The position numbers and the translations under genes are program-made. Shown one piece after another: positions 1 through 32,175 of a DNA stretch of 33,489 bases (within the stretch, counting starts at the first letter, position 1; every line of letters begins with the position of its first letter). The notes beneath the pieces are model-generated. The model was given only the letters and a program-made list of their open reading frames with translations. It searched no databases and was not told where the DNA came from. The DNA lies in the IMG/VR virus record IMGVR_UViG_2541047932_000021. One strand, 5' to 3'. The stretch is from a virus. Lineage: Duplodnaviria; Heunggongvirae; Uroviricota; Caudoviricetes.

Positions 1-1002
1 TTACCCTCTATTGTCAAAAGGGTTCAATTCAACAGCAGCCTCTAAATGACCTGGAGCAAAATGCGCATAACGCATAGTCATTTTTATATCGCTATGCCCC
101 AGTATTTTTTGCAACACAAGAATATTTCCGCCCCGCATCATAAAATGACTGGCAAACGTGTGACGTAGCACATGAGTTAATTGCCCATCAGGAAGCTCGA
201 TCTTCGCTCTCTTAATTGCAGCGTCAAAAGCCTCATAACATGGTGAAAATAGCGCTCCTCGTTTTTTAGGAAGCATAGCCTGCAATTGAGGTGAAATCGG
301 TACAGTGCGGTTCTTCTTTCCTTTAGTTTTAACAAATGTGATTCGACCGGGCAGTACTTGAGATTGCTTTAATCCTTCTGCTTCACTCCACCGAGCACCC
401 GTCGCAAGCCCAATACGGACAACAACCCCCAAATCTTTATTCCGTGACTCATCACACGCAATCAGAAGGCGTTCAATCTCATCTACATACAGAAACGCCA
501 GTTCCTTTTCTTCCTCACGAAACTTGCGAATACCAGTCAGGGGGTTTTCACCAGACCACTCCCCAAGGCGCTTCAGTTCGGCAAAAACAGCATGTAGATA
601 TGACTGCTCGCGATTAACGGTTGCTTCACTAAGTTTTTTCTTCCCCTTGGGATTCCATTCTCCTGATAGCCTTCTTTCCCGATAAGTAGCAAACATATTT
701 TTGTCAAACTGAGAAGCAAATGGATCTCCCAGCCTGGAACAAATCGCCTCAAGTTTGACTTTGCGCTCTGCACCAGAGGACAAGGTTTTACCGTACATCT
801 CAAACCAACGAGCAATCAACTCAGAAAGACGAGGACCAGAACCATCTTGAAACTCGTCTCCAACTCTACTATTCATTAAACGGCGCTCATAAGAGAGCGC
901 CTCACTTTTTGTCGCAAACTGTTTACGAATGCGTTTTCCCGATGCCCCGTAGGGATAACATTCGCAAAGCCATTTACCTGATGGAATCTTACGAACCGAC
1001 AT
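1..1002 (-). CDS. int: P2-family tyrosine integrase
   Basis: 333 aa; motifs TGARWSEA, RITFVKTKGKKNRTVPIS, HVLRHTFASHF, MTMRYAHFAP match P2 Int catalytic R-H-R-Y region; stop codon at positions 1-3. Confidence 0.9.
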   Translation of the reverse strand: MSVRKIPSGKWLCECYPYGASGKRIRKQFATKSEALSYERRLMNSRVGDEFQDGSGPRLSELIARWFEMYGKTLSSGAERKVKLEAICSRLGDPFASQFDKNMFATYRERRLSGEWNPKGKKKLSEATVNREQSYLHAVFAELKRLGEWSGENPLTGIRKFREEEKELAFLYVDEIERLLIACDESRNKDLGVVVRIGLATGARWSEAEGLKQSQVLPGRITFVKTKGKKNRTVPISPQLQAMLPKKRGALFSPCYEAFDAAIKRAKIELPDGQLTHVLRHTFASHFMMRGGNILVLQKILGHSDIKMTMRYAHFAPGHLEAAVELNPFDNRG

Positions 1003-1007
1003 TTTAG

Positions 1008-1355
1008 TTACTTATCACATAAATCAAATGCAGCCTTAGTGACATCCCCCAGACTCTTTTTTAACCCTGGGGCGGCATCATTATCTAGCCAAAATGGATT
1101 ATTGTTATCTAACGGTAACGCACCAAATGTTTTACCTTTTATTCGAGCCAAACCTGTAAGTGCATATAACTTATTATCGTCAAAATTCATCACATAAGGA
1201 TTACCATCAAGACACTGTAATTGAACCTCATCAGTATTAAATGGCCATACCCCATTGAAACTCTCACGTTCAATAGTTTTAAAAGGCATTGCGACGGCGG
1301 AAAAAGAAAACATAGATAAAAAAGTAACTAATAGTTGAACCTTTTTTACTTTCAT
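1008..1355 (-). CDS. Small secreted protein, unknown function (possibly YebY/DUF2511-like); cargo gene between repressor and int
   Basis: 115 aa; N-terminal signal peptide MKVKKVQLLVTFLSMFSFSAVA; two Cys (C49, C113); family guess is from memory only. Confidence 0.55.
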   Translation of the reverse strand: MKVKKVQLLVTFLSMFSFSAVAMPFKTIERESFNGVWPFNTDEVQLQCLDGNPYVMNFDDNKLYALTGLARIKGKTFGALPLDNNNPFWLDNDAAPGLKKSLGDVTKAAFDLCDK

Positions 1356-1384
1356 ATCATTACCTCAATTTAGCTCAAGTAAGA

Positions 1385-2035
1385 TTACAAATTAAAAAAC
1401 GCCCTAGAAATGACACCGCCTACCAAAACCCCTACGCAGATAAAGAATATTATTTCTTTTGGATAAAGTCGGATTAATTCTGAAGCACGAAGTCGGACTT
1501 CTGGTAAGGTCGAACTCTCTGTGTGGCTTGATGCCGATTGTTGCTCTAACCACGACAATGCAGACTGTAACTGAGAACGAGTAAGATCGTTTAAACGTCC
1601 TGTACCGAAATTGATATGGCAATACCGCAGAAGTTTTTGTCGAAGTCCACAGTCTTCACTGTTACGTAGTAATAAACTTACAAGAGCCTTACAGGCATCA
1701 TGATCTTTACATCGCTCAAGCATTGCATGCAGAAAACTCTCCGCTGTTTTATATTGATTTACTGTCATATCATCAATACCAGCTACACCAATCTCCGCAT
1801 GTACTTTTTGCCAAATAATAAACGCTTCAGTATTGCTAGCTTCTGCAATAGCAGCAACCAAGCTATTTAGCTCCTTACGCTGAGCCTTAAGCAAAGGGCG
1901 ATCGTCATCATCATTATTCGAAGGGATTGCGATATTGACGGTCTGAGAACCATCATATCGCTCTATCTGAATATTCTTTTCGTGAAAATCACGCCCAGCA
2001 ACGCGATTGTTTGAACCGTTTGAGTTGACGGCCAT
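1385..2035 (-). CDS. Tail-anchored membrane protein, unknown function; cargo gene in the lysogeny operon
   Basis: 216 aa; single C-terminal hydrophobic helix IIFFICVGVLVGGVISRAFF; N-terminal motif NGSNNRVAGRDFHE shared with the C-terminus of the upstream repressor; AT-rich. Confidence 0.6.
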   Translation of the reverse strand: MAVNSNGSNNRVAGRDFHEKNIQIERYDGSQTVNIAIPSNNDDDDRPLLKAQRKELNSLVAAIAEASNTEAFIIWQKVHAEIGVAGIDDMTVNQYKTAESFLHAMLERCKDHDACKALVSLLLRNSEDCGLRQKLLRYCHINFGTGRLNDLTRSQLQSALSWLEQQSASSHTESSTLPEVRLRASELIRLYPKEIIFFICVGVLVGGVISRAFFNL

Positions 2036-5027: not shown

Positions 5028-7685
5028 ATGACGGCAGAGTACATCAGGGACTGGCAACAACCGCGCCACGCAGTGGGGCGTGAAGGAACGGGGATCCCCG
5101 CTCCTGAATCCGCGCTTTCCTCCTGGCTGGATGCCTACCGGGCAGAGAACGAGCGCCGCCAGGAAATGGCTGATGCGGCGTTCTCCGCCACGCCGCTGGG
5201 CAACCTGATTAATAAAAGCCTGGACGCACAGGAAAAACAGGACAAAACAATCACACTGGCAGGAGACGCCAGAAAACAGGCACGCGGCGCGGTAGATGAG
5301 GCCATGGCCTCACTGCGCCTGCTGCCGTCCTATCTGCGCGATCCGCTTATTCGCCACCTCTCCTTCCTGCGCAAAAAACAGGAAGCCGATCGTCAGAAAG
5401 GAAAAAACGCCAGGCAGGCAGAACGCTATGCGCGTGGGACCCTGCGCAAAATATTCGAACGTCTGGAGCGCACCGATCACCGCTGGCTGACATCGGGTTA
5501 TCGCTCCCTTGCCGGACGTGAACGCCTGGACGATTTGCTTTACCTGCCGCAACTCAACAAACACCAGATACAGACGCTGGCCACCATGACGGCGGCGATG
5601 TTCAGCAGCACCTTCGAAAAACTCTGCGATGGTTTTGGCGCGACTGATGGCGAGCTGACCATGGATGTAACGCTGAAGGCGTATCAGATGCTGGCCCGCA
5701 TGGCGTTACACTTACACGCCATGCCTCCGCATTATGACGCACTGACAACAGACAAAGACCGGAGGCACGAACCGGACACAGAACTGCTGCCGGGCGCAAT
5801 CCTTCGCCTGACCTGTGCGGAATGGTGGAAACGCAAACTGTGGCTGTTACGTTGCGAGTGGAGAGAAGAACAACTCCGCGCCGCCTGTCTGGTTTCCAGA
5901 AAAACATCGCCCTATCTGAGCCAGGACGCGTTAAGCGAGTTTCGCGCACAGCGCGAGAAAACACGCGATTTCCTGAAAAGTTTCATGCTGGAAAATGAAG
6001 ACGGGTTCACGATTGATCTCGAGACGGTGTATTACGCGGGAGTAAGTAACCCGGTTCACCGTAAGGCAGAAATGATGGCCACCATGAAGGGGCTGGAACT
6101 TCTGGCCGAAGCCCGTGGCGACAAAGCGGTGTTTCTGACTGTCACCTGCCCGTCAAAATACCACGCCACAACGGAGAACGGTCATCCGAATCCCAAATGG
6201 AACGGGGCCACAATGCGCGACTCCAGCGATTACCTGGTTAACACGTTTTTTGCGGCGGTCCGCAAAAAACTGAACCGCGACGACCTGCGCTGGTATGGCA
6301 TCCGCACGGTGGAGCCTCATCATGACGGCACCGTGCACTGGCATATGATGGTCTTTGCACATCCGGAAGAAATCGACACCATTGTGTCCCATACCCGCGA
6401 TATTGCCATTCAGGAAGACCGCCACGAGCTGGGCAATGATATTACTCCGCGCTTTAAGGTGGAGTATGTCGACGGCTCAAAAGGCACGCCAACCAGCTAC
6501 ATCGCCACCTACATCGGAAAGAACCTGGACAGCCGCGCCGTGGATGGCATCGACCCGAAAACGGACAAGCCACGCGTGGACCACGAAACCGGAAAATCAA
6601 TGGCCGAGAGCGTGGAACGCGCCATCGGCTGGGCGCGTCTTCACCGCGTCCGCCAGTTCCAGTTCTTTGGTATCCCCCCCCGTCAGGTATGGCGTGAACT
6701 CCGCCGCCTTGCCAGTCAGATGGCCCGCAACCCGGAAGGTCCACAACGTCTGGAAAATGACGCAATGGATGCGGTACTCGCTGCCGCTGATGCCGGGTGT
6801 TTTGCCACCTACATTGAGAAACAGGGTGGCGTACTTGTTCCACGCAAAGACTACCTGATTCGCACCGCCTACGACCTCGCAGAAGAGCTGAACGATTACG
6901 GCGAGCAAAGCGTACAGATTTACGGGATCTGGTCGCCACAAATCGGGGAATCTTCCCGCGTGTGCACGCACCCGGATAACTGGAAGCTGGTAAGACGTAA
7001 ACCGGAAGCGGAAGACAGCGCCCGCGAAAATGGTTTTGACCTTCAGGGCGGCCCTGCCGCCCCTTGGACTCGTGGCAATAACTGTCCCCGTGTACAGGAA
7101 ACGGACAACAACGGGACAGAACAGCCGGAAGAACGGCCAGCACCGTGGCCGCAGCTCCCTGACGGCGTTGAAGTGAACGAATGGATGCGCTCACTGAAAC
7201 GGCACGAACGCCGGGCGCTGATGCGTTCGCTTCGTGACAAACAGGCAAAAAACAGCAGTGATGAAGCGCAGAGCTGGACACAGAGCCGCAAACAGCAGCG
7301 GCCTTTGCCTGATAACCACGAATTACTCGCTAAAGAATGGCGGGAGTCTGCTGAATCTCTCGGCCTGCATATCGGTGAACAACAGATGCAGCACCTGTTA
7401 CGGGGCGGCAGTCTGTACGTTGACGGCAGCATCATTGCACCGCAGGGATTTGAAATTGTACGCAAACCGGATACCCGCCTGGACAGCCGAATCACGCAGC
7501 TCTGGCAGCGCCTGAGCCGTAATCATGGCGTAAGCAGCACGGAGATCCGCCATAACCCGGTCGCCAGCTATCTGGCACAGCTGGGGGCATCAGACCCTGA
7601 AGCCGCCGCACGCCTGGCATCGCCCCCATCAGTTGCGGCGGAACGCGGTGCGCAGCCAGCACATCATCACGGGATGCCGCCTTAA
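5028..7685 (+). CDS. A: Rolling-circle replication initiator endonuclease gpA (HUH family); 3' end uncertain
   Basis: 885 aa; HUH motif region HHDGTVHWHMMVFAHPEE; tyrosine region TSYIATYIGKN; ORF overlaps convergent Q by 194 nt so the true stop may be earlier. Confidence 0.8.
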   Translation: MTAEYIRDWQQPRHAVGREGTGIPAPESALSSWLDAYRAENERRQEMADAAFSATPLGNLINKSLDAQEKQDKTITLAGDARKQARGAVDEAMASLRLLPSYLRDPLIRHLSFLRKKQEADRQKGKNARQAERYARGTLRKIFERLERTDHRWLTSGYRSLAGRERLDDLLYLPQLNKHQIQTLATMTAAMFSSTFEKLCDGFGATDGELTMDVTLKAYQMLARMALHLHAMPPHYDALTTDKDRRHEPDTELLPGAILRLTCAEWWKRKLWLLRCEWREEQLRAACLVSRKTSPYLSQDALSEFRAQREKTRDFLKSFMLENEDGFTIDLETVYYAGVSNPVHRKAEMMATMKGLELLAEARGDKAVFLTVTCPSKYHATTENGHPNPKWNGATMRDSSDYLVNTFFAAVRKKLNRDDLRWYGIRTVEPHHDGTVHWHMMVFAHPEEIDTIVSHTRDIAIQEDRHELGNDITPRFKVEYVDGSKGTPTSYIATYIGKNLDSRAVDGIDPKTDKPRVDHETGKSMAESVERAIGWARLHRVRQFQFFGIPPRQVWRELRRLASQMARNPEGPQRLENDAMDAVLAAADAGCFATYIEKQGGVLVPRKDYLIRTAYDLAEELNDYGEQSVQIYGIWSPQIGESSRVCTHPDNWKLVRRKPEAEDSARENGFDLQGGPAAPWTRGNNCPRVQETDNNGTEQPEERPAPWPQLPDGVEVNEWMRSLKRHERRALMRSLRDKQAKNSSDEAQSWTQSRKQQRPLPDNHELLAKEWRESAESLGLHIGEQQMQHLLRGGSLYVDGSIIAPQGFEIVRKPDTRLDSRITQLWQRLSRNHGVSSTEIRHNPVASYLAQLGASDPEAAARLASPPSVAAERGAQPAHHHGMPP

Positions 7686-8496: not shown

Positions 8497-10246
8497 CAGA
8501 ACTCCATAACTGTGAAACGCTCGTTTTCTCCTTCGCCGCCAATTGGTTCGTTAATGACAGCAAGCATGGTTGCCCACGCAAGGTCGCCGTGGCTGCTCCC
8601 CCTCGCGCGGTCCGTTTCGTAAGTGATAAAGCCGCCCGGTGTTTTCACCTTACGCACGGCGTTAAAGGCCGCGACCAGCTCGCGTTCGGCGCGATCGTAT
8701 TCCCACCGCCCGGCACGCATTATTTGCAGCATTTTCAGTACAAGCGACCGTTTTGATGACAGCGTGAAGGTGTACGGAATAGCGGCAGGGAAAAACCGTT
8801 TCACTATCTGATAAACAGCCTCCCCGTTCCCGCCCGTCACATCAATGCCGATGTGTTCCACGTTGTAGCGATACGTGAAATCTTCAATGACTCTGGCCTG
8901 TTCTTCAAACTCCAGCCCCTGAACGCGTCGCGTCTCCACCGTTCGAAAACGGCCACCAGGAACAGCCGGAGGAACCACCACGGACACAGCGCCGCTGTCG
9001 CCGTTGCCACTGCTGCCGTTTGCGTCATACCCAATCCATACCGGACGATTCCCCATCGGGCGGGGAGCAAAAGGTTTCCAGTCTTTCCAGTCGTCGTATC
9101 CGTCAACACCGCAGCCAATCAGGATATTCAGGTTAAATGCCGATTCCCCTTCGCGGACAAACTCACACATATAGAGATTGAGGAACTCGTCTTCGGTGTT
9201 TTCATCACGAATTTCGTCGATATCGGTGTGTTTCCAGCCGTGATTAACCACATCTTCCAGCGTGACAATTTGCCGCCACGTCCGGTCAGGGCAGATAAGC
9301 CCGTTATGCAGCGTTTTCCAGTCCACAGAAAAACGCTGGCGTTTATGCGTGGCCTTTTTCTCGTTCCAGCGGTCGCCGTTCCAGTAGGCGTATGCTTCGT
9401 GCGTTTCGGTGGATGGCGTGGAGAAGTAGGTGCGCCGCAATCCGCTGAGGGTTGCCATAGCGCCAGCCACCTTGCGCAGTTCAGCAAAGCGACTGACCCA
9501 GAAAAATTCATCAAAATAAAAATTGCCCGTATAGGACTGCGCCGACGCAGCAGAAGTGCCGAGAAAATGCAGCTCTGCGCCGTTGGAGAGGATGATTTTA
9601 TCGCCCCCTTTCAGCTCCACATCAACTTCAGCCGCAGCCTTCTGAATAATGCTTTTAAACTGGAACGCCTGACGACGCGACGCAGACAAAAAATCTGGTT
9701 ACGCTGGTAAGGTTGCGCCACATCGTCACGCAGCGCCATCAGCAGTGCTTCCTGTGCAAAATACCAGGTCGCGCCAATCTGTCGGGATTTCAGGATCATC
9801 CTGTTACGTATCCCGGCTTCCCTGCAAAGGGTCAGGGAGTCAAACCAGCCCCGCTGATGCCACTCCAGCCTGCTGATGATTTTTTCCCGCAGTGCGGCAA
9901 TCTGTTCCGGCGTGAAATGATTTTTGAGTTTTTTCGCCCGGCCTTTCTTTCCTGTGGCCGTCGCATCCGGCTGGCCATCATGCATTTTTTTAAGCTGCCG
10001 GGTCAGCAGGTCTATTTCCTTAAAGTCACCGCCTGTTTTATTCTGTTTTTCAGTAAGCTGGATGAGGCGCGCATCGATGGACTGCGTGACACGCTGCACG
10101 GGTGGCGTTTCATCCCACTGGTCGCGTTTTTTCCACGCATAAATCGTGTTCGGGTTTATTCCCATCAGACGTGATATTTCTGCGGGCGGATAACCCTGCC
10201 AGTAAAGTTGCCGCGCACGCTGGCGCACAAAAGCGTCCTGAATCAT
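8496..10246 (-). pseudogene. P: Large terminase (ATPase) subunit gpP, interrupted by a 1-nt frameshift in a homopolymer
   Basis: N-terminal ORF 9611..10246 and C-terminal ORF 8496..9689 are each P2 gpP-like; frames diverge at the A6 run 9688-9693; one extra A would give a continuous ~583-aa protein reading NQIF-LSAS. Confidence 0.75.
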
Positions 10247-15142: not shown

Positions 15143-15218
15143 CGCGGATAAACGGGCCATTGCTGAACTGGATAAGAGAATAGCCGAACTGACACACCAG
15201 ACGGGAGTAACACAATGA
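14907..15218 (+). CDS. o-spanin (Rz1/LysC-like outer-membrane lipoprotein), partly nested in the i-spanin gene
   Basis: Different frame starting inside the i-spanin gene; lipobox LLTGC; proline-rich; SD GGAGAGG before GTG 14907 (alternative start ATG 14937). Confidence 0.7.
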   Translation: MNSYATILQKMNAPTLCLTLVLLTGCAGTQNAPRPAPSIRLIPQTLTMPVTPPPFPAPPTWGNLGIWGDRLLDALETCNADKRAIAELDKRIAELTHQTGVTQ

Positions 15219-17095
15219 CCAGTAAGAACTTTGCACTGATTACAGCCATGACACAGGCTGAACTGACCCGGAAAGTGAATGAATATCTTGCGAAGGGGTG
15301 GCATCTTCAGGGGGACACACGGGTAGCTTACGAGCCCGGCACCCCGTGGTATCTCATGCAGGCCATGGTGGCCGATGGTGCCACCGAGACGCCCTCTGAG
15401 CCATTACCAAACAACAAGACGCCGGAATGGTACTACGTGGTTGTGCTTGCCGGGCAGTCCAACGGCATGGCTTACGGTGAAGGGCTTCCGTTACCGGATT
15501 CTTACGATGCTCCGGATCCGCGCATTAAACAGCTTGCGCGCCGCAGTACGGTAACCCCGGGTGGAGAGGGTTGTACGTATAACGACATCATCCCGGCTGA
15601 CCACTGTCTGCATGATGTGCAGGATATGAGTACGCTGAATCATCCGAAGGCGGACCTGAGCAAAGGTCAGTACGGCTGTGTGGGACAGGGACTTCATATT
15701 GCCAAAAAACTACTCCCGTATATCCCGAATAACGCGGGGATCCTGCTGGTACCATGCTGTCGTGGTGGTTCGGCATTCACTCAGGGCGCGGAGGGAACAT
15801 TCAGTACGACCACGGGGGCCAGCCAGGATTCGGCGCGCTGGGGTGCGGGTAAGCCGTTATATCAGGACCTGATCGCACGCACCAAAGCGGCATTACAGAA
15901 GAACCCGAAAAATGTGTTGCTGGCGGTGTGCTGGATGCAGGGCGAATTTGACATGAGCGCTGCCACCTACGCACAGCAACCGGACCTGTTCACGGCCATG
16001 CTGAAGCAGTTCCGTACTGACCTTTCCGGATTTAACGCGCAGTGCCATGGCGGCAGTGCTGCAGTTATACCGTGGATTTGTGGCGACACGACGTATTACT
16101 GGAAAAACACATACGGCACACAGTATGACTCCGTCTACGGCGCGTACAAAAACAGGGAGAGCGACAACGTTTTCTTTGTGCCGTTCATGACCGACGGTAA
16201 CGGCAACAACACGCCCACCAACTTACCGGCAGAAGACCCGGATATTGCTGATGCAGGTTATTACGGCGCGCAATCCCGTAGTAATGGTAATTGGGTATCG
16301 TCAAATCGTCCGACACATTTCAGTTCATGGGCGCGCAGGGGCATTATTTCGGATCGCCTGGCAACCGCTATTCTGAACGCAGTTGGTCGAACCAGCGCCT
16401 TCATCAGCGGTACCGCACCGGAAATCAAACCCTCGCCCGGCGGCGACACTCCATCGGGGCCGTCTGATGGTGACACATCCGTTCGTACAGTCTCCCTGCT
16501 GCCGACAGCCGGAGAGGCTGCTGCGCAGGGCTGGACCATCACCGGCGGCAGTGTTGCGCTGGAAGATGGTGTGTTTAAGGTTACCAAGCAGAGCAATAAA
16601 ACTTGGTCCCTGATGCATCCGGTGGATGACGCAGTCTCCCTGCTGACACGGGGTGGCAGACTGAGCTGTAAGTTTCGACTGTCAGGCGCACTGACCAACA
16701 ACCAGTTCGGTCTGGGAATTTATCTGTATACCGATGTAGCGTTACCTGACGTCGTGGCGATGACCGGGACTGGTAACCCGTTCCTGATGTCGTTCTTCAC
16801 CCAGACCACAGACGGCAAACTGAATCTGATGCATCACAAGAAAGCCGGAAACACAAAGTTGGGTGAGTTCGGGAATTACAGTAACGACTGGCAGACGCTG
16901 GAGCTGGTGTTCACCGCCGGCAGTGCCACGGTTACTCCGAAACTGAATGGAGTGGCTGGCCCGGCATTCCAGGTCATAAAAGACAGTCTGACACTGGGGC
17001 TGAATGCGCTGACGTTAACTGATATCACTAAAAATGCCGCGTACGGCGTCGATATCGGCAGCCTGGTGCTGGAAATCAATAATCCCGCAGTATAA
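15215..17095 (+). CDS. NanS-p-like carbohydrate O-acetylesterase (DUF1737 N-domain, SASA/SGNH-type esterase core, C-terminal beta-rich domain)
   Basis: 626 aa; N-terminus MTSKNFALITAMTQAELTRKVNEYLAKGWHLQGD; GQSN motif in VVVLAGQSNGMAYGE; ATG overlaps the o-spanin stop. Confidence 0.7.
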   Translation: MTSKNFALITAMTQAELTRKVNEYLAKGWHLQGDTRVAYEPGTPWYLMQAMVADGATETPSEPLPNNKTPEWYYVVVLAGQSNGMAYGEGLPLPDSYDAPDPRIKQLARRSTVTPGGEGCTYNDIIPADHCLHDVQDMSTLNHPKADLSKGQYGCVGQGLHIAKKLLPYIPNNAGILLVPCCRGGSAFTQGAEGTFSTTTGASQDSARWGAGKPLYQDLIARTKAALQKNPKNVLLAVCWMQGEFDMSAATYAQQPDLFTAMLKQFRTDLSGFNAQCHGGSAAVIPWICGDTTYYWKNTYGTQYDSVYGAYKNRESDNVFFVPFMTDGNGNNTPTNLPAEDPDIADAGYYGAQSRSNGNWVSSNRPTHFSSWARRGIISDRLATAILNAVGRTSAFISGTAPEIKPSPGGDTPSGPSDGDTSVRTVSLLPTAGEAAAQGWTITGGSVALEDGVFKVTKQSNKTWSLMHPVDDAVSLLTRGGRLSCKFRLSGALTNNQFGLGIYLYTDVALPDVVAMTGTGNPFLMSFFTQTTDGKLNLMHHKKAGNTKLGEFGNYSNDWQTLELVFTAGSATVTPKLNGVAGPAFQVIKDSLTLGLNALTLTDITKNAAYGVDIGSLVLEINNPAV

Positions 17096-20039: not shown

Positions 20040-20640
20040 TTCACTGTTACCACCATCAGCCAGCAATTTCATGCGTTGTGCCGAAGCCGTCGGAACACGC
20101 ATTACAGACATTCCGGTAGACCTCAACACGCTGTGGTCGCCGGACACCTGCCCGGTGCATCTGCTGCCTTATCTCGCCTGGGCGTTTTCCGTTGACCGCT
20201 GGGATCGCAACTGGCCGGAAGAGACAAAGCGACAGGTGATTCGTGATGCATGGCTGACACACCGACACAAAGGGACCATCAGCGCACTGCGAAGAGCCGT
20301 GGAGCCTCTCGGCTACCTGATTGAAGTAAAGGAGTGGTGGCAACTCAACGAGGAGCCAGGAACATTTCGCATTGTTGTCGGAGTACTTGATCAGGGCATC
20401 ACCGATGAAATGTATCAGGAACTTGAGCGCCTTATTGCGGATGCAAAACCAGTAAGTCGCCATCTGACGGGGCTGGCGATCAGCCTGAGTGTGAACGGAA
20501 AGATTTTCGTTGGTACGGGATGCTATCACGGCGATGCCCTGACGGTTTATCCCTACATCCCGGAGTCCATTATTGTCGAAGGGGATTATTTCCCTGCCCC
20601 GGCCATTCATTTAATTGATAATCTGAGAGTAAACGCATGA
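20032..20640 (+). CDS. I: Baseplate / tail formation protein gpI
   Basis: ATG 20032 overlaps the J stop; [14 protein letters not shown] and VSRHLTG motifs as in P2 gpI. Confidence 0.85.
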
Positions 20641-22640
20641 CAGTGAAATACTACGCCATTCTGACTAATCAGGGCGCGGCACGACTGGCTAACGCGACGA
20701 TGCTCGGCAGTAAGCTGAATCTGACGCAAATGGCCGTTGGTGATGCAAATGGTGTGTTACCAACACCAGACCCTGCACAAACAAAACTGATTAACCAGAA
20801 ACGCATTGCACCGCTGAATCTTCTGAATGTTGACCCTAACAATCAGAGCCAGATTATTGCGGAGCAAATCATCCCTGAAGACGAGGGAGGATTCTGGATC
20901 CGTGAGATTGGTCTTTATGATGATAAAGGTGTACTCATTGCGGTGGCAAACTGCCCGGAAACGTACAAACCGCAGTTGCAGGAAGGCAGTGGACGCACCC
21001 AGACTATCCGCATGATTCTGGTTGTCACGAACACCAAAGCCATCACGCTGAAAATCGACCCGTCTGTGGTTCTGGCAACCCGCAAATATGTGGATGATAA
21101 AATCTCAAAGCACGAGCAGTCACGACGTCACCCGGACGCCTCGCTGACCGCAAAAGGCTTTGTTCAACTCAGTAGCGCCACCAACAGCGATTCAGAAACG
21201 CTGGCGGCAACACCAAAGGCGGTAAAGGCAGCCTATGACCTTGCTAACGGGAAATATACCGCACAGGACGCCACGACAGCACAAAAAGGCATTGTCCAGC
21301 TCAGTAGCGCCACCAACAGCGATTCAGAAACGCTGGCGGCAACACCAAAGGCGGTAAAGGCAGCCTATGACCTTGCTAACGGGAAATATACCGCACAGGA
21401 CGCCACGACGGCACAAAAAGGAATTGTCCAGCTCAGTAGTGCAACCAACAGCACATCTGAAACGCTTGCTGCAACACCGAAAGCAGTGAAAGCAGCTAAT
21501 GACAATGCGAATGGTCGGGTACCTTCTGCCCGTAAGGTGAATGGTAAGGCGCTTTCGGCGGATATAACACTGACGCCGAAAGATATTGGTACGCTTAACT
21601 CAACAACAATGTCATTCAGCGGTGGTGCTGGTTGGTTCAAATTAGCAACGGTAACCATGCCACAGGCGAGTTCTGTTGTTTCAATTACGTTGATTGGTGG
21701 CGCTGGATTTAACGTCGGTTCACCTCAACAGGCAGGTATATCTGAACTTGTTTTGCGTGCAGGTAATGGTAATCCGAAGGGGATTACTGGTGCTTTATGG
21801 CAGCGCACATCGACAGGGTTTACAAATTTTGCCTGGGTCAATACATCTGGTGATACTTACGATATTTACGTTGCAATCGGAAATTATGCGACTGGTGTAA
21901 ATATTCAATGGGATTATACCAGTAATGCCAGCGTGACGATTCATACGTCACCAGCATATTCTGCTAATAAGCCGGAAGGGTTAACGGACGGTACAGTTTA
22001 TTCACTCTATACGCCATCAGAGCAGTTTTATCCGCCTGGCGCACCAATCCCGTGGCCATCGGATACCGTTCCGTCTGGTTATGCCCTGATGCAGGGGCAG
22101 ACTTTTGACAAATCTGCCTACCCGAAACTTGCAGCCGCTTATCCGTCAGGCGTGATCCCTGATATGCGTGGCTGGACGATTAAGGGCAAACCCGCCAGTG
22201 GCCGGGCCGTATTGTCTCAGGAACAGGACGGCATTAAATCGCACACCCACAGCGCCAGCGCATCCAATACGGATTTGGGGACGAAAACCACATCGTCGTT
22301 TGATTACGGTACTAAAACGACCAGTTCATTTGATTACGGCACAAAAACCACAAATAGCGCAGGAGCTCATTCACACAATATACCTGTTGGTCACACTGGC
22401 GCGGGGAATGGTGTATCAGCCGGTTATAACGCTGCGTTAGGTACTGGTACCACGTCGAGCGCAGGAGAGCATGCTCACAATGTATATATCGGTGCCCATA
22501 ACCACACTATCGGCATTGGTGCTCATGCCCATTCTGTCATTATTGGTCCCCACGGACACACCATCACCGTTAATGCTACGGGGAACGCAGAAAACACCGT
22601 AAAAAACATCGCATTTAACTATATTGTGAGGCTTGCATAA
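20637..22640 (+). CDS. H: Tail fibre protein gpH with internal tandem repeats and His-rich C-terminal region
   Basis: 667 aa; N-terminus and C-terminus ([39 protein letters not shown]...[18 protein letters not shown]) match P2 gpH as recalled. Confidence 0.9.
21168..21563 (+). repeat. Three in-frame tandem 132-bp (44-aa) repeats inside gene H
   Basis: Unit starts at 21168, 21300 and 21432; copies 1 and 2 differ at 2 of 132 nt; copy 3 is diverged. Confidence 0.9.
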
Positions 22641-23218
22641 TGACATTCAGAATGAGTGAACAATCACGGACCATAAAAATTTATAATCTACTGACCGGAA
22701 CCAATGAGTTTATTGGTGAAGGTGATGCATACATTTCACCTCATACAGGTCTGCCTGCAAACAGTACCGATATTGCCCCGCCAGATATTCCGGCTGGCTT
22801 CGTGGCCGTTTTCAACAGTGATGAGGCATCGTGGCATCTCGTTGAAGACCATCGGGGTAAAACGGTTTATGACGTGGCATCAGGGGACTCGTTATTTATT
22901 TCTGAACTCGGTCCGTTACCGGAAAATGTTACCTGGTTGTCGCCGTATGGAGAGTATCAGAAGTGGAACGGCACATCCTGGGTGAAAGATGCAGAAGCAG
23001 AAAAACTATTTCGGATAAGGGAGGCGGAAGAAACAAAAAACAGCCTGATGCAGGTAGCCAGTGAGCATATTGCACCACTTCAGGATGCTATAGATTTAGA
23101 TATTGCGACGGAGGAAGAGACATCGTTACTGGCTGCATGGAAGACATATCGAGTATTGTTGCATCGTGTTGATACAACAGTAGCAGCAGATATTGAGTGG
23201 CCAGTCGCCCCACAATAA
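22640..23218 (+). CDS. G: Tail fibre assembly chaperone gpG
   Basis: 192 aa; ATG overlaps the H stop; Tfa-like sequence. Confidence 0.85.
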
Positions 23219-23227
23219 AAAGAAAAA

Positions 23228-23251
23228 GCCATCGATAGAAATATCGATGGC
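23228..23251. terminator. Bidirectional hairpin terminator between convergent G and the acetyltransferase gene
   Basis: Perfect 10-bp stem GCCATCGATA / TATCGATGGC with GAAA loop, flanked by an A-run upstream and TTTAT downstream. Confidence 0.6.
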
Positions 23252-23261
23252 TTTATGTACT

Positions 23262-23834
23262 CTATTTATACAATACAGCACCGCTCTTTTTAGTTATATA
23301 TGTGCAGTTCGATGGTATATCTTTATTTATAAAAGACATTGCACCTATTTTTACATTATCCCCAATTTTACGGGATAATCCAATGATGCAACAATTAGCT
23401 CCGATATCAACGTTGCTACCAATTTTTACTCTTGAACCAGGTATGTCACCATCTATCTGTCCAATGGTCGTATTCTGTCGTAACACCAGATTTTCACCAG
23501 CATCAACAGCAAAATGAACAACAATTCCAGCATGATGGGGAATTGTTAACCCTTTTCCAATATTTGCGCCCAATCCAATTTCGCAACCAAATTTGTTAAT
23601 TATTTTACTGTTTAACTTCTTGGCTGCTTTCTTATGTAATTTATTACCATTAATATACATTTCGTTAGCCAACCGCCACCAGAAAAGGAAATTCCTGTTA
23701 CGCTGCTTTTTCTCTCTTAAAAGCCTCCAGATATCCATACGTTTCCGCCGAATTACTTCATGTTTCCAGAAGTTTTTTAAATTAGTAGAGTTCCCAAATA
23801 AAACAAAGTGAATTGCCATTAGGTAAGACAGCAC
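23262..23834 (-). CDS. Hexapeptide-repeat (left-handed beta-helix) acetyltransferase, CysE/NodL/NeuO-like; AT-rich cargo gene
   Basis: Core HHAGIVVHFAVDAGENLVLRQNTTIG...KIGSNVDIGANCCIIG; start set at GTG 23834 with AAGGAG 6 nt upstream (ORF track begins at 23867); AT-rich compared with flanking tail genes. Confidence 0.65.
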   Translation of the reverse strand: MLSYLMAIHFVLFGNSTNLKNFWKHEVIRRKRMDIWRLLREKKQRNRNFLFWWRLANEMYINGNKLHKKAAKKLNSKIINKFGCEIGLGANIGKGLTIPHHAGIVVHFAVDAGENLVLRQNTTIGQIDGDIPGSRVKIGSNVDIGANCCIIGLSRKIGDNVKIGAMSFINKDIPSNCTYITKKSGAVLYK

Positions 23835-23990
23835 GATAATCTCCTTAATTATTATTTCAGACCACACATGTTATAAGGTTAAGAGATTATAAAATCCTGT
23901 TGTTTATTATTCAAAAACAATTTTCTGAGAAGGACATACAACAGCAAGTCGCCAGTCACCTTCATCAGGAAATTGGCGACATACGTTAAA

Positions 23991-24485
23991 TCAGAGCAGC
24001 CCCTTAACTGAGCTGGCCGCGCTATTAAGGGATGATGTCACCTTATCTTTGAAGCCGGACAACATATCGCTGAACGATGAGGATTGCAGGCGCTCCCGCA
24101 AATCCTCATCACAGCGTTCAAGAGTCAGTGAAAATTCTATCTTTTTCGCCTTACCGTAGCGATCAAACTCGGAACGGCTCGTATTCGTTTCAGTCAGTAC
24201 ATACATGCCGTAAATCTGCCCGACACCATCAATCAGAGGCCAGGGCCGTCCTGTATATGCCTGCGTGGTCAGCAATGAAAGCGACACTTCGCCACCTGTA
24301 ATTTCAGGATAAAGCACGCCGGAAAGCACAATGCGATCATCACCTGCACCGATATACTGCCAGCTTGCTGAACGGTTAACGCGTTCATTTTTCACATGCC
24401 GCCAGCTTTTGTTTTGCTGTAACTGCTGATGCGGCAATGTGCGCAGCTCAAAAACAAACATGCCGTAGATCATCATCATGACCAT
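23991..24485 (-). CDS. U: Tail protein gpU
   Basis: 164 aa; P2 gpU-like. Confidence 0.8.
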   Translation of the reverse strand: MVMMMIYGMFVFELRTLPHQQLQQNKSWRHVKNERVNRSASWQYIGAGDDRIVLSGVLYPEITGGEVSLSLLTTQAYTGRPWPLIDGVGQIYGMYVLTETNTSRSEFDRYGKAKKIEFSLTLERCDEDLRERLQSSSFSDMLSGFKDKVTSSLNSAASSVKGLL

Positions 24486-31598: not shown

Positions 31599-31666
31599 GG
31601 AACTATCACTAGCTAGTGTACCGTTAACGGCACATAATGCTCGCACAACAAACCTGTTAAAAGAGA

Positions 31667-31948
31667 TTACTCAGCATTCTCCTGCTTCCATTGCCGGATC
31701 ATTTCATCGGTAACATCACCCTCATAACATACCACGTCATACCCTCCATTACGGCTATATGCACTGCGTCCACCACATCTACTACCATTCCTTGCATGAT
31801 TATAAGGACACGCACAATTGCCTGGATAAGATTCAATGGATTCTTTAATTATTTCTTTTTTGATCTGAGCATCAGACTTTCCTGTTGCTGCATATCCGCT
31901 AAAAGATACTAAACAAAGGCAGATTGCCATTAATAAACCACATCGCAT
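31667..31948 (-). CDS. Small secreted cysteine-rich protein, unknown function
   Basis: Start taken at M39 of the ORF (signal peptide MRCGLLMAICLCLVSFSGYAA); four Cys in the mature part; AT-rich. Confidence 0.45.
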   Translation of the reverse strand: MRCGLLMAICLCLVSFSGYAATGKSDAQIKKEIIKESIESYPGNCACPYNHARNGSRCGGRSAYSRNGGYDVVCYEGDVTDEMIRQWKQENAE

Positions 31949-32175
31949 ACCGATACACTCTATTACTAACCAATCATAGCCCACATCATAAAATCGAGAT
32001 GAGGAGTACAATACCTTTAACAAGAAGGTGTCATAACGATAATATGTCGTGCAATTCATCAAAAAAAAGATCTATATCAAAGAGATAGAACTCTTATCAG
32101 TGCTTCAGACATCGGCATTCGAGGCAGCAGAAAAACAGTAAATCTGACGAATTTGCCTTTTCCCAAGATGTTGTC

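Follow-up and report, generated by a model that had tools for sequence, protein, structure and literature searches.

A CysE-like acetyltransferase gene that accompanies the tail fiber tip and chaperone gene of P88-like and P1-like phages: a candidate for lysogenic conversion of the cell envelope

We analyzed a 33,489-nucleotide stretch of viral DNA (Caudoviricetes; IMG/VR record IMGVR_UViG_2541047932_000021; hereafter the window) and focused on a single AT-rich gene for a putative hexapeptide-repeat acetyltransferase that lies between the tail fiber assembly gene G (tfa) and the tail gene gpU. With moderate confidence, we interpret this gene as a lysogenic-conversion moron whose product would O-acetylate a precursor of an envelope glycan. 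Gene anatomy, protein fold, the lack of CysE-specific features, purifying selection, linkage to the fiber tip and the glycan enzymes encoded beside homologues were all observed; its expression, acetyl donor, acceptor and phenotype are what we infer. Acetyltransferase morons beside tail fiber genes are a familiar theme, and this one is widespread, misnamed and travels with the fiber tip and its chaperone. About 1 in 10 complete Escherichia coli genomes, as well as P1-like phage-plasmids, carry the gene under the label "serine acetyltransferase," which its sequence does not support.

Fold, family and active site

Profile searches pointed to a beta-helix acetyltransferase. Twenty-five beta-helix families of NCBIfam matched the protein, led by EpsC (7e-21), CysE (1.5e-16) and WcaB (4e-14), all of them far under their cut-offs; the Pfam Hexapep profile fell below its threshold (23.6 versus 27 bits), and the PHROG assignment (phrog_2154, 3e-86) was to a function-unknown group. 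An AlphaFold model (AF2; pLDDT of 87), built like our analysis of residue conservation on 47 homologues, contained five N-terminal helices (residues 2 to 82) followed by a left-handed parallel beta-helix, which together with a catalytic His is the hallmark of the hexapeptide-repeat superfamily. The top 50 Foldseek matches in the PDB were all serine acetyltransferases (probability of 1.00, template modeling (TM) scores of 0.72 to 0.74, 19 to 27% identity), and the BFVD viral structure library gave no match at E<=0.001. The assignment to the left-handed beta-helix acyltransferases made in the initial annotation was thus confirmed by NCBIfam, by the model and by the fold matches, with Hexapep remaining subthreshold.

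Two catalytic residues of CysE had counterparts in the phage protein. In HMMER alignments with CysE structures, His100 aligned with the catalytic His in the "DH" motif of CysE and was present in 98% of the 47 homologues, and Glu85 aligned with the catalytic Asp at a position that was Asp in most homologues (position 85 is D or E), suggesting that the protein is probably CysE-like in chemistry. The residues that hold the substrate gave a different picture. In published CysE structures, the Asp of "DH" and the Arg-His of the "GDRHP" carboxylate loop bind serine or cysteine. The substrate-binding Asp (Asp157) aligned with Pro99, which was only 45% conserved (entropy of 2.5 bits), and the "GDRHP" loop aligned with "GSR-V," where positions 134 and 135 (entropy of 3.4 to 3.7 bits) belonged to the segment that varies most within the family. 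Equivalents of Arg192-His193 were absent, and the site was not conserved among family members. Signature motifs of the family were instead FLFWWRLANEMY and RQNTTIG, and the residues WWR at 52 to 54 and QN at 120 and 121 were invariant.

Other parts of the protein also set it apart from CysE. We detected no SATase_N match in Pfam at E<=0.1 in the 82 residues that form five helices before the beta-helix, and matches to CysE chains in the PDB began only at about residue 115 to 140 of CysE. Scores against the CysE equivalog models were 60.9 versus 210.65 bits for TIGR01172 and 36 versus 397 bits for NF008349. The CysK-binding tail of CysE must end in Ile; the phage protein ends in ...SGAVLYK, which is not such a tail, and the C termini of the family were variable. 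Furthermore, only 1 of the 157 neighbors of homologues that we examined was a sulfur-assimilation gene. Because of its family scores, N-terminal domain, serine-binding residues and neighbor genes, we conclude that the protein is not a housekeeping CysE. As read from its sequence, it is CysE-like in fold and not a serine acetyltransferase, which makes its database name a misnomer. Orthology to housekeeping CysE had been named at the outset as one finding that would overturn a surface-modifying role, and since the protein is clearly not a CysE orthologue, that hypothesis withstands its own test.

Among polysaccharide families, EpsC gave 74.6 bits against a cut-off of 150 bits and WcaB 52 against 196 bits. 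No Pfam match to PF01757 (Acyl_transf_3) was detected, and the model is that of a soluble protein made of a helical domain and a beta-helix. None of the NCBIfam, PDB sequence or fold matches was to a family or chain named NeuO, and PADLOC 2.0 returned 0 defense families at E<=0.1.

Linkage to the fiber tip, selection and neighbors of homologues

We identified 80 IMG/VR loci with a homologue, and a convergent tfa lay at most 150 nt away in 67 of the 75 that could be assessed, a highly redundant set that amounts to about 6 of 9 distinct lineages when loci are grouped by identity. The arrangement held at acetyltransferase identities of 44 to 65%, at which tfa itself was only 38 to 49% identical (L091 to L095, L098 and L107 to L110). 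At closer range, a block comprising the 3' part of the fiber gene H (from about 21598), tfa and the acetyltransferase gene was 93 to 95% identical in nucleotide sequence to its counterpart in the P1-like phage-plasmids JL22 (L001) and Ro157c2YLVW (L002). Fiber tip, tfa and acetyltransferase gene are transferred together between phages of the P88-like and P1-like kinds. In JL22 (L001, 4541..8888) and Ro157c2YLVW, the gene is flanked by tfa on one side and the inverted U'/S' genes on the other, close to cin, which puts it within the invertible C segment. Inversion of this segment would place the acetyltransferase gene in sense orientation behind U', and orientation-dependent expression in P1-like phages is possible.

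A universal linkage to tfa was rejected. The linkage holds in the phage contigs and fails in a survey of one genome per species (L111 to L190), where tfa was adjacent in only 5 of 80 loci; because of this low count, the family taken together is not confined to phages.

Variants of the arrangement were seen at several loci. Relatives of about 35% identity also sat beside tfa in vB_EcoM-613R2 (L191, 283..846; the same slot between gpU and tfa) and in Hafnia phage yong2 (L193, 4043..4588). In both, Tyr replaces the catalytic His100 and KPG replaces the invariant RQN, and judging by these substitutions the two proteins may have another chemistry or be inactive. P88-like prophages with an allele of 70% identity (L018 to L023, about 5617..6605) carry an 87-amino-acid tfa fragment and a 222-amino-acid S-adenosylmethionine-dependent methyltransferase in the slot, between the acetyltransferase gene and the full tfa, an arrangement that shows stepwise accretion of cargo via recombination within tfa. 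Two further loci in related prophages (L039, 6204..7106, and L089, 6208..7017, both on the minus strand) contain an open reading frame (ORF) of 270 to 300 amino acids between the fiber gene and tfa. A Macro domain (1e-18 to 2e-21) forms the N-terminal part of this ORF, and in L039 its C-terminal part resembles His-rich fiber-tip repeats.

The gene is under strong purifying selection. In a fixed-frame comparison of 35 distinct alleles (70 to 99% nucleotide identity) against the window allele, the ratio of nonsynonymous to synonymous substitution rates (dN/dS) was 0.02 to 0.26, with zero stop codons. This selection extends to the decayed prophage of O157:H7 strains, in which insertion sequence (IS) elements have removed the head genes and the fiber gene, tfa and the acetyltransferase gene were kept intact, and dN/dS of the acetyltransferase allele was 0.04. 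The 761-nt island with its flanks occurred in 530 of 5426 complete E. coli genomes, with at least 80% of the query covered in 510 of these, and 66 of its 600 places in E. coli genomes were on plasmids. Previous reports have included the gene in a list of cargo of the Citrobacter rodentium phage phiNP (PMC6456863) and, in phage JL22, have described its role and the reason for its presence as unknown (PMC9603915).

Where the neighbors of homologues were informative, they were glycan enzymes, largely of core type (GT9, GT25, WaaP and HtrL). In Xenorhabdus prophages, a homologue of 50% identity forms an operon with a Glyco_transf_25 gene beside a tail fiber gene, and in one viral locus (L096) an HtrL_YibB gene lies between the acetyltransferase gene and tfa. 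In the species survey, immediate neighbors included genes for GT2 (three loci), Glyco_transf_9, a polysaccharide pyruvyl transferase, NeuB (five loci) and a WaaP-family kinase (three loci). Other homologues were found at a prophage end by hok/gef or next to an integrase gene. On the enteropathogenic E. coli (EPEC) adherence factor (EAF) plasmid (L011 to L015), a homologue of 50% identity lies about 300 nt 3' of a 157-amino-acid ORF that follows the bfp operon, among IS fragments.

Gene anatomy and the prophage slot

The features of the gene and its flanks are listed in Table 1. As described in the initial annotation, this is a single AT-rich gene of about 190 codons that converges with G behind a hairpin terminator, which falls between the acetyltransferase and tfa stop codons. 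The longest mechanical ORF, to which the gene had first been assigned, runs through 23262..23867 (minus strand) and would encode 201 amino acids from an upstream GTG. The GTG at 23834 is likely the real start: RefSeq gives the same 573-nt coding sequence (CDS; WP_000954200) in E. coli 2013C-3342, which carries the identical prophage, and the ribosome-binding site (RBS) before this GTG was present in every P88-type upstream region, including that of an allele with 70% amino acid identity. Both promoter hexamers were also kept exactly 5' of this allele, whose 161-nt upstream region is 73% identical and whose coding dS is about 1.8. The short inverted repeat just past gpU may act as a weak terminator that shields the acetyltransferase gene from late read-through of the tail operon.

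Table 1. Features of the acetyltransferase gene and its flanks, in window coordinates
Feature	Position	Strand	Description
Acetyltransferase CDS	23262..23834	-	190 amino acids, GTG start, 573 nt; left-handed beta-helix, CysE-like
RBS AAGGAG	23841..23846	-	6 nt 5' of GTG 23834; read from sequence
Sigma70-like promoter TTGAAT-17-TATAAT	23886..23914	-	Promoter scan; 10/12 consensus positions
Hairpin terminator	23225..23254	-	13-bp stem, 4-nt loop, T-run on minus strand; terminator scan and sequence
Short inverted repeat GTCGCCA(19 nt)TGGCGAC	23948..23980	-	Just past gpU stop; read from sequence
Tail fiber assembly gene G/tfa	22640..23218	+	Caudo_TAP 1e-40; convergent neighbor of acetyltransferase
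Tail fiber gene H	20637..22640	+	Pfam Phage_tail_fib, Phage_fiber_2, Collar
gpU tail gene	23991..24485	-	Phage_P2_GpU 8e-39; other border of slot, last gene of tail block

GC content of the CDS was 0.356 (0.325 at third codon positions) compared with 0.523 for the whole window, and that of the island (23219..23990) was 0.348; the lowest-GC 573-nt stretch of the window is found here. Tandem Repeats Finder detected no tandem repeat in 23200..24000, hence no 5' heptanucleotide repeat for phase variation of the NeuO kind. A putative promoter and terminator of its own, this low GC content and its absence from P88 and other Xuanwuviruses identify the gene as a moron.

The window holds a complete prophage that runs from integrase to the tRNA-Leu/Cys/Gly-pgsA junction. 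P88-like phages (Xuanwuvirus, Peduoviridae) matched it at 95% nucleotide identity over about 70% of the query (window positions 9000 to 33489, 24.5 kb). The prophage occupies the same chromosomal site as the decayed O157:H7 prophage, which, partly from an old annotation string, we take to be CP-933T. Unlike in P2, the sheath-tube-E-T-U genes are on the minus strand, giving the order tfa (plus), acetyltransferase (minus) and gpU (minus). Because the tail block is inverted, the gene lies between G and U rather than between G and FI, and it converges on G yet follows the sheath-to-U tail genes in the same direction. In P88, the slot is filled by an invertible fiber segment with a second tfa (tfa'), an alternative fiber end and a DNA invertase, and homology to P88 restarts at about 23985 (the match covers query positions 886 to 1001 of 23100 to 24100). 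We rejected the idea that the slot retains a remnant of a P88-type invertible segment, as the annotation of the matching prophage lists no invertase and a search from fiber gene to slot found no inverted repeat of the cix-like kind.

The gene had initially been placed in the slot where P2 carries Z/fun. This placement stands by analogy and in three P2-like contigs (L091, L095 and L107), in which homologues of 48 to 65% identity lie between G/tfa and the sheath gene FI; it does not stand for the window itself, where the phage is P88-like and the border is gpU. The G-FI interval has been termed "moron position 2" in P2-like phages (PMC3573123).

Several other features of the prophage were observed. 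The fiber gene contains three tandem 132-nt repeats (21134..21529, plus strand), with the second and third copies 92% and 67% identical to the first, that match Phage_fiber_2 repeats; this gene is annotated as frameshifted in strain 2013C-3342 and is intact in the window. Two more low-GC patches (0.37 to 0.39) at the prophage ends are probably further cargo: one at about 800..1400 adjoins the integrase gene and holds a DUF2511 ORF (1008..1355) and an unassigned 216-amino-acid ORF (1385..2035), and the other at about 31600..31950 is near a hok/gef gene annotated in the matching strain. In the late region, a 626-amino-acid ORF (15215..17095, plus strand) has DUF1737, SASA (sialate-specific acetylesterase) and DUF6645 domains and is 87% identical in nucleotide sequence to the yjhS/nanS-p 9-O-acetyl-sialate esterase genes of Shiga toxin (Stx) phages. 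The same prophage thus encodes an O-acetyl esterase as well as an O-acetyltransferase.

Proposed function, alternatives and known systems

In the function that we propose, the product would be a soluble acetyl-CoA-dependent O-acetyltransferase of the CysE/WcaB/EpsC branch, presumably trimeric as is usual in the family, and would be transcribed in the lysogen from its own sigma70 promoter, possibly with added read-through from the tail operon. His100 would serve as the general base for acetylation of a sugar hydroxyl on an intermediate of an envelope glycan on the cytoplasmic side, with lipopolysaccharide (LPS) core or O unit, enterobacterial common antigen and colanic acid as candidate acceptors. 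We favor a conserved acceptor because carriers have many O types and because the informative partners are largely core-type enzymes, but we name a conserved structure such as the LPS core only tentatively. The cell surface would be altered, and the likely benefit is masking of phage receptors, possibly along with a change in the interaction with an animal host. Lysogenic conversion or receptor masking, as initially suggested, is thus favored by the glycan-enzyme partners, the tfa linkage and the purifying selection, with substrate and phenotype standing as predictions.

Several points weigh against this proposal. The many different O antigens of E. coli carriers blur the target, and a cytoplasmic enzyme can reach precursors only. 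AT-rich genes are often silenced by H-NS, and our scan counted promoter-like sites in the region at a level not above chance (6 versus 4.8 expected). About three-quarters of the homologues in the species survey are orphan genes with uninformative neighbors, and the few tfa-adjacent loci in that survey are a further reason for caution. Adjacency to tfa may simply reflect a permissive insertion site that follows a terminator. Finally, our literature search found mentions of the family at the level of annotation and no experiments on it.

A bolder extension, which we regard as doubtful, is that the acetyltransferase forms the third part of a portable cassette of fiber tip, chaperone and receptor editor. 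In such a cassette, the enzyme would O-acetylate, from within the cytoplasm, a conserved glycan (LPS core, for example) that is recognized by the co-transferred fiber tip, so that each receptor-binding module would bring its own exclusion function across P88-, P2- and P1-like phages. The hypervariable loop at residues 122 to 137 would set acceptor specificity, and the C-segment location in P1-like phages may make expression dependent on orientation.

Some alternatives share part of the proposed function. The same glycan O-acetylation could benefit the lysogen in interactions with an animal host, through immune evasion or colonization as for NeuO and NeaT, rather than in phage exclusion, a possibility that we consider unlikely. 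Carrier strains include O157:H7, O26, O111, O103 and O104:H4, and a k-mer study placed the gene among signatures that discriminate Shiga toxin-producing E. coli (STEC; PMC5737611). The homologue near bfp on the EAF plasmid and the retention of the gene in a dead prophage also speak for such a benefit. However, enrichment in these strains may just track which hosts P88-like phages infect, homologues are common in Gammaproteobacteria from insect guts, plants and the environment, and the tight linkage to the receptor-binding cassette points to phage biology.

Anti-phage defense whose target is not a surface glycan but, for example, a phage component, nucleotide or metabolite appears somewhat less likely again, although the G-FI slot of P2-like phages is one that we take to be a defense hotspot. 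This slot is a known site of variable cargo (PMC3573123), the gene is a single-gene unit with its own putative promoter, and in one Peduoviridae genome a homologue of 44% identity adjoins an abortive-infection gene and the integrase gene at the opposite end. Against defense, PADLOC matched no model, and the partners of homologues are glycan enzymes and not nucleases, sensors or toxins. Members of the family are also fixed as chromosomal genes in whole genera, as in eight Rahnella species that carry the gene at one locus, flanked by genes for a POT transporter and a GGDEF protein.

A role in the virion or in lysis, in which the enzyme would modify the fiber or its chaperone or would acetylate receptors on lysing cells to spare progeny, seems very unlikely to us. 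Adjacency to tfa in phages, the gene's position behind the tail operon in the window, read in the same direction, and its location inside the C segment of P1-like phages would all suit this role. It is difficult to reconcile with a sigma70-type promoter on the strand opposite H and G, with an intact gene under purifying selection in O157:H7 prophages that lack head and fiber genes or with the many family members outside phages.

We find it hardly credible that the protein is a true serine O-acetyltransferase, encoded by an auxiliary metabolic gene that raises cysteine synthesis without feedback control: PGAP, GenBank and PHROG-linked annotations use this name and the top fold matches are all CysE, but both equivalog scores, the missing SATase_N domain and serine-binding residues, the C terminus and the near absence of sulfur-assimilation neighbors contradict it, and a metabolic role of this kind in defense, also initially raised, was not supported. 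Equally implausible is acetylation of xenobiotics or antibiotics in the manner of CatB/Vat enzymes, with which the phage protein shares its superfamily and carriage on mobile elements; no CatB, Vat or streptogramin family was among the 25 NCBIfam and 37 PDB sequence matches listed, and the N-terminal helical domain is CysE-like.

If the gene does direct O-acetylation of LPS or another envelope glycan, phage receptors would be altered, which is relevant to phage typing and phage therapy of STEC, and antigenicity could change. A soluble enzyme of the CysE branch would then join a set of known phage conversion enzymes that has so far consisted of membrane proteins of the Acyl_transf_3 family and NeuO, and its co-transfer with the fiber tip would neatly illustrate how attack and exclusion functions can move as a unit.

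Comparison with known systems places the gene among several partial likenesses. CysE (PDB 1T3D, 6WYE and 4N69) is the closest relative in both fold and sequence, with a helical N-terminal domain before the beta-helix and a catalytic His with an acidic partner in common, but the N-terminal domain of the phage protein is about 60 residues shorter, and the serine-binding Asp, GDRHP loop and CysK tail are absent. NeuO of prophage CUS-3 is a phage-borne beta-helix O-acetyltransferase of polysialic acid, encoded near receptor-binding genes, that converts the surface of the lysogen. The likeness to NeuO initially proposed is one of concept, as NeuO comes from another branch of the superfamily, no NeuO-like sequence match was obtained, the phage gene has no 5' tandem repeat, and the carriers are not K1.

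Z/fun of P2 and the invertible fiber segments of P88, P1 and Mu occupy the same physical slot after the tail fiber assembly gene, although the slot here borders gpU and not FI and retains no invertase or cix-like repeat. The acyltransferase gene neaT (c0970) in a P2-like prophage of E. coli CFT073 lies in the G-FI interval, is strongly AT-rich and runs against the flanking tail genes, and its phenotypes relate to the cell surface (PMC3573123). With the same orientation and type of slot, neaT is a positional and functional analogue that encodes an unrelated protein, since NeaT, Oac and OafA are integral-membrane Acyl_transf_3 (PF01757) proteins and the phage protein is a soluble beta-helix protein without that domain. 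Apart from CysE, the best-scoring families were WcaB, of colanic acid synthesis, and EpsC, of the exopolysaccharide acetyltransferases, which have the same short CysE-like architecture. The phage gene differs from these in scoring below their cut-offs and in standing alone in a prophage rather than in a polysaccharide locus, but WcaB and EpsC, presumed to modify intermediates of glycan synthesis inside the cytoplasm as we propose here, are its nearest functional analogues.

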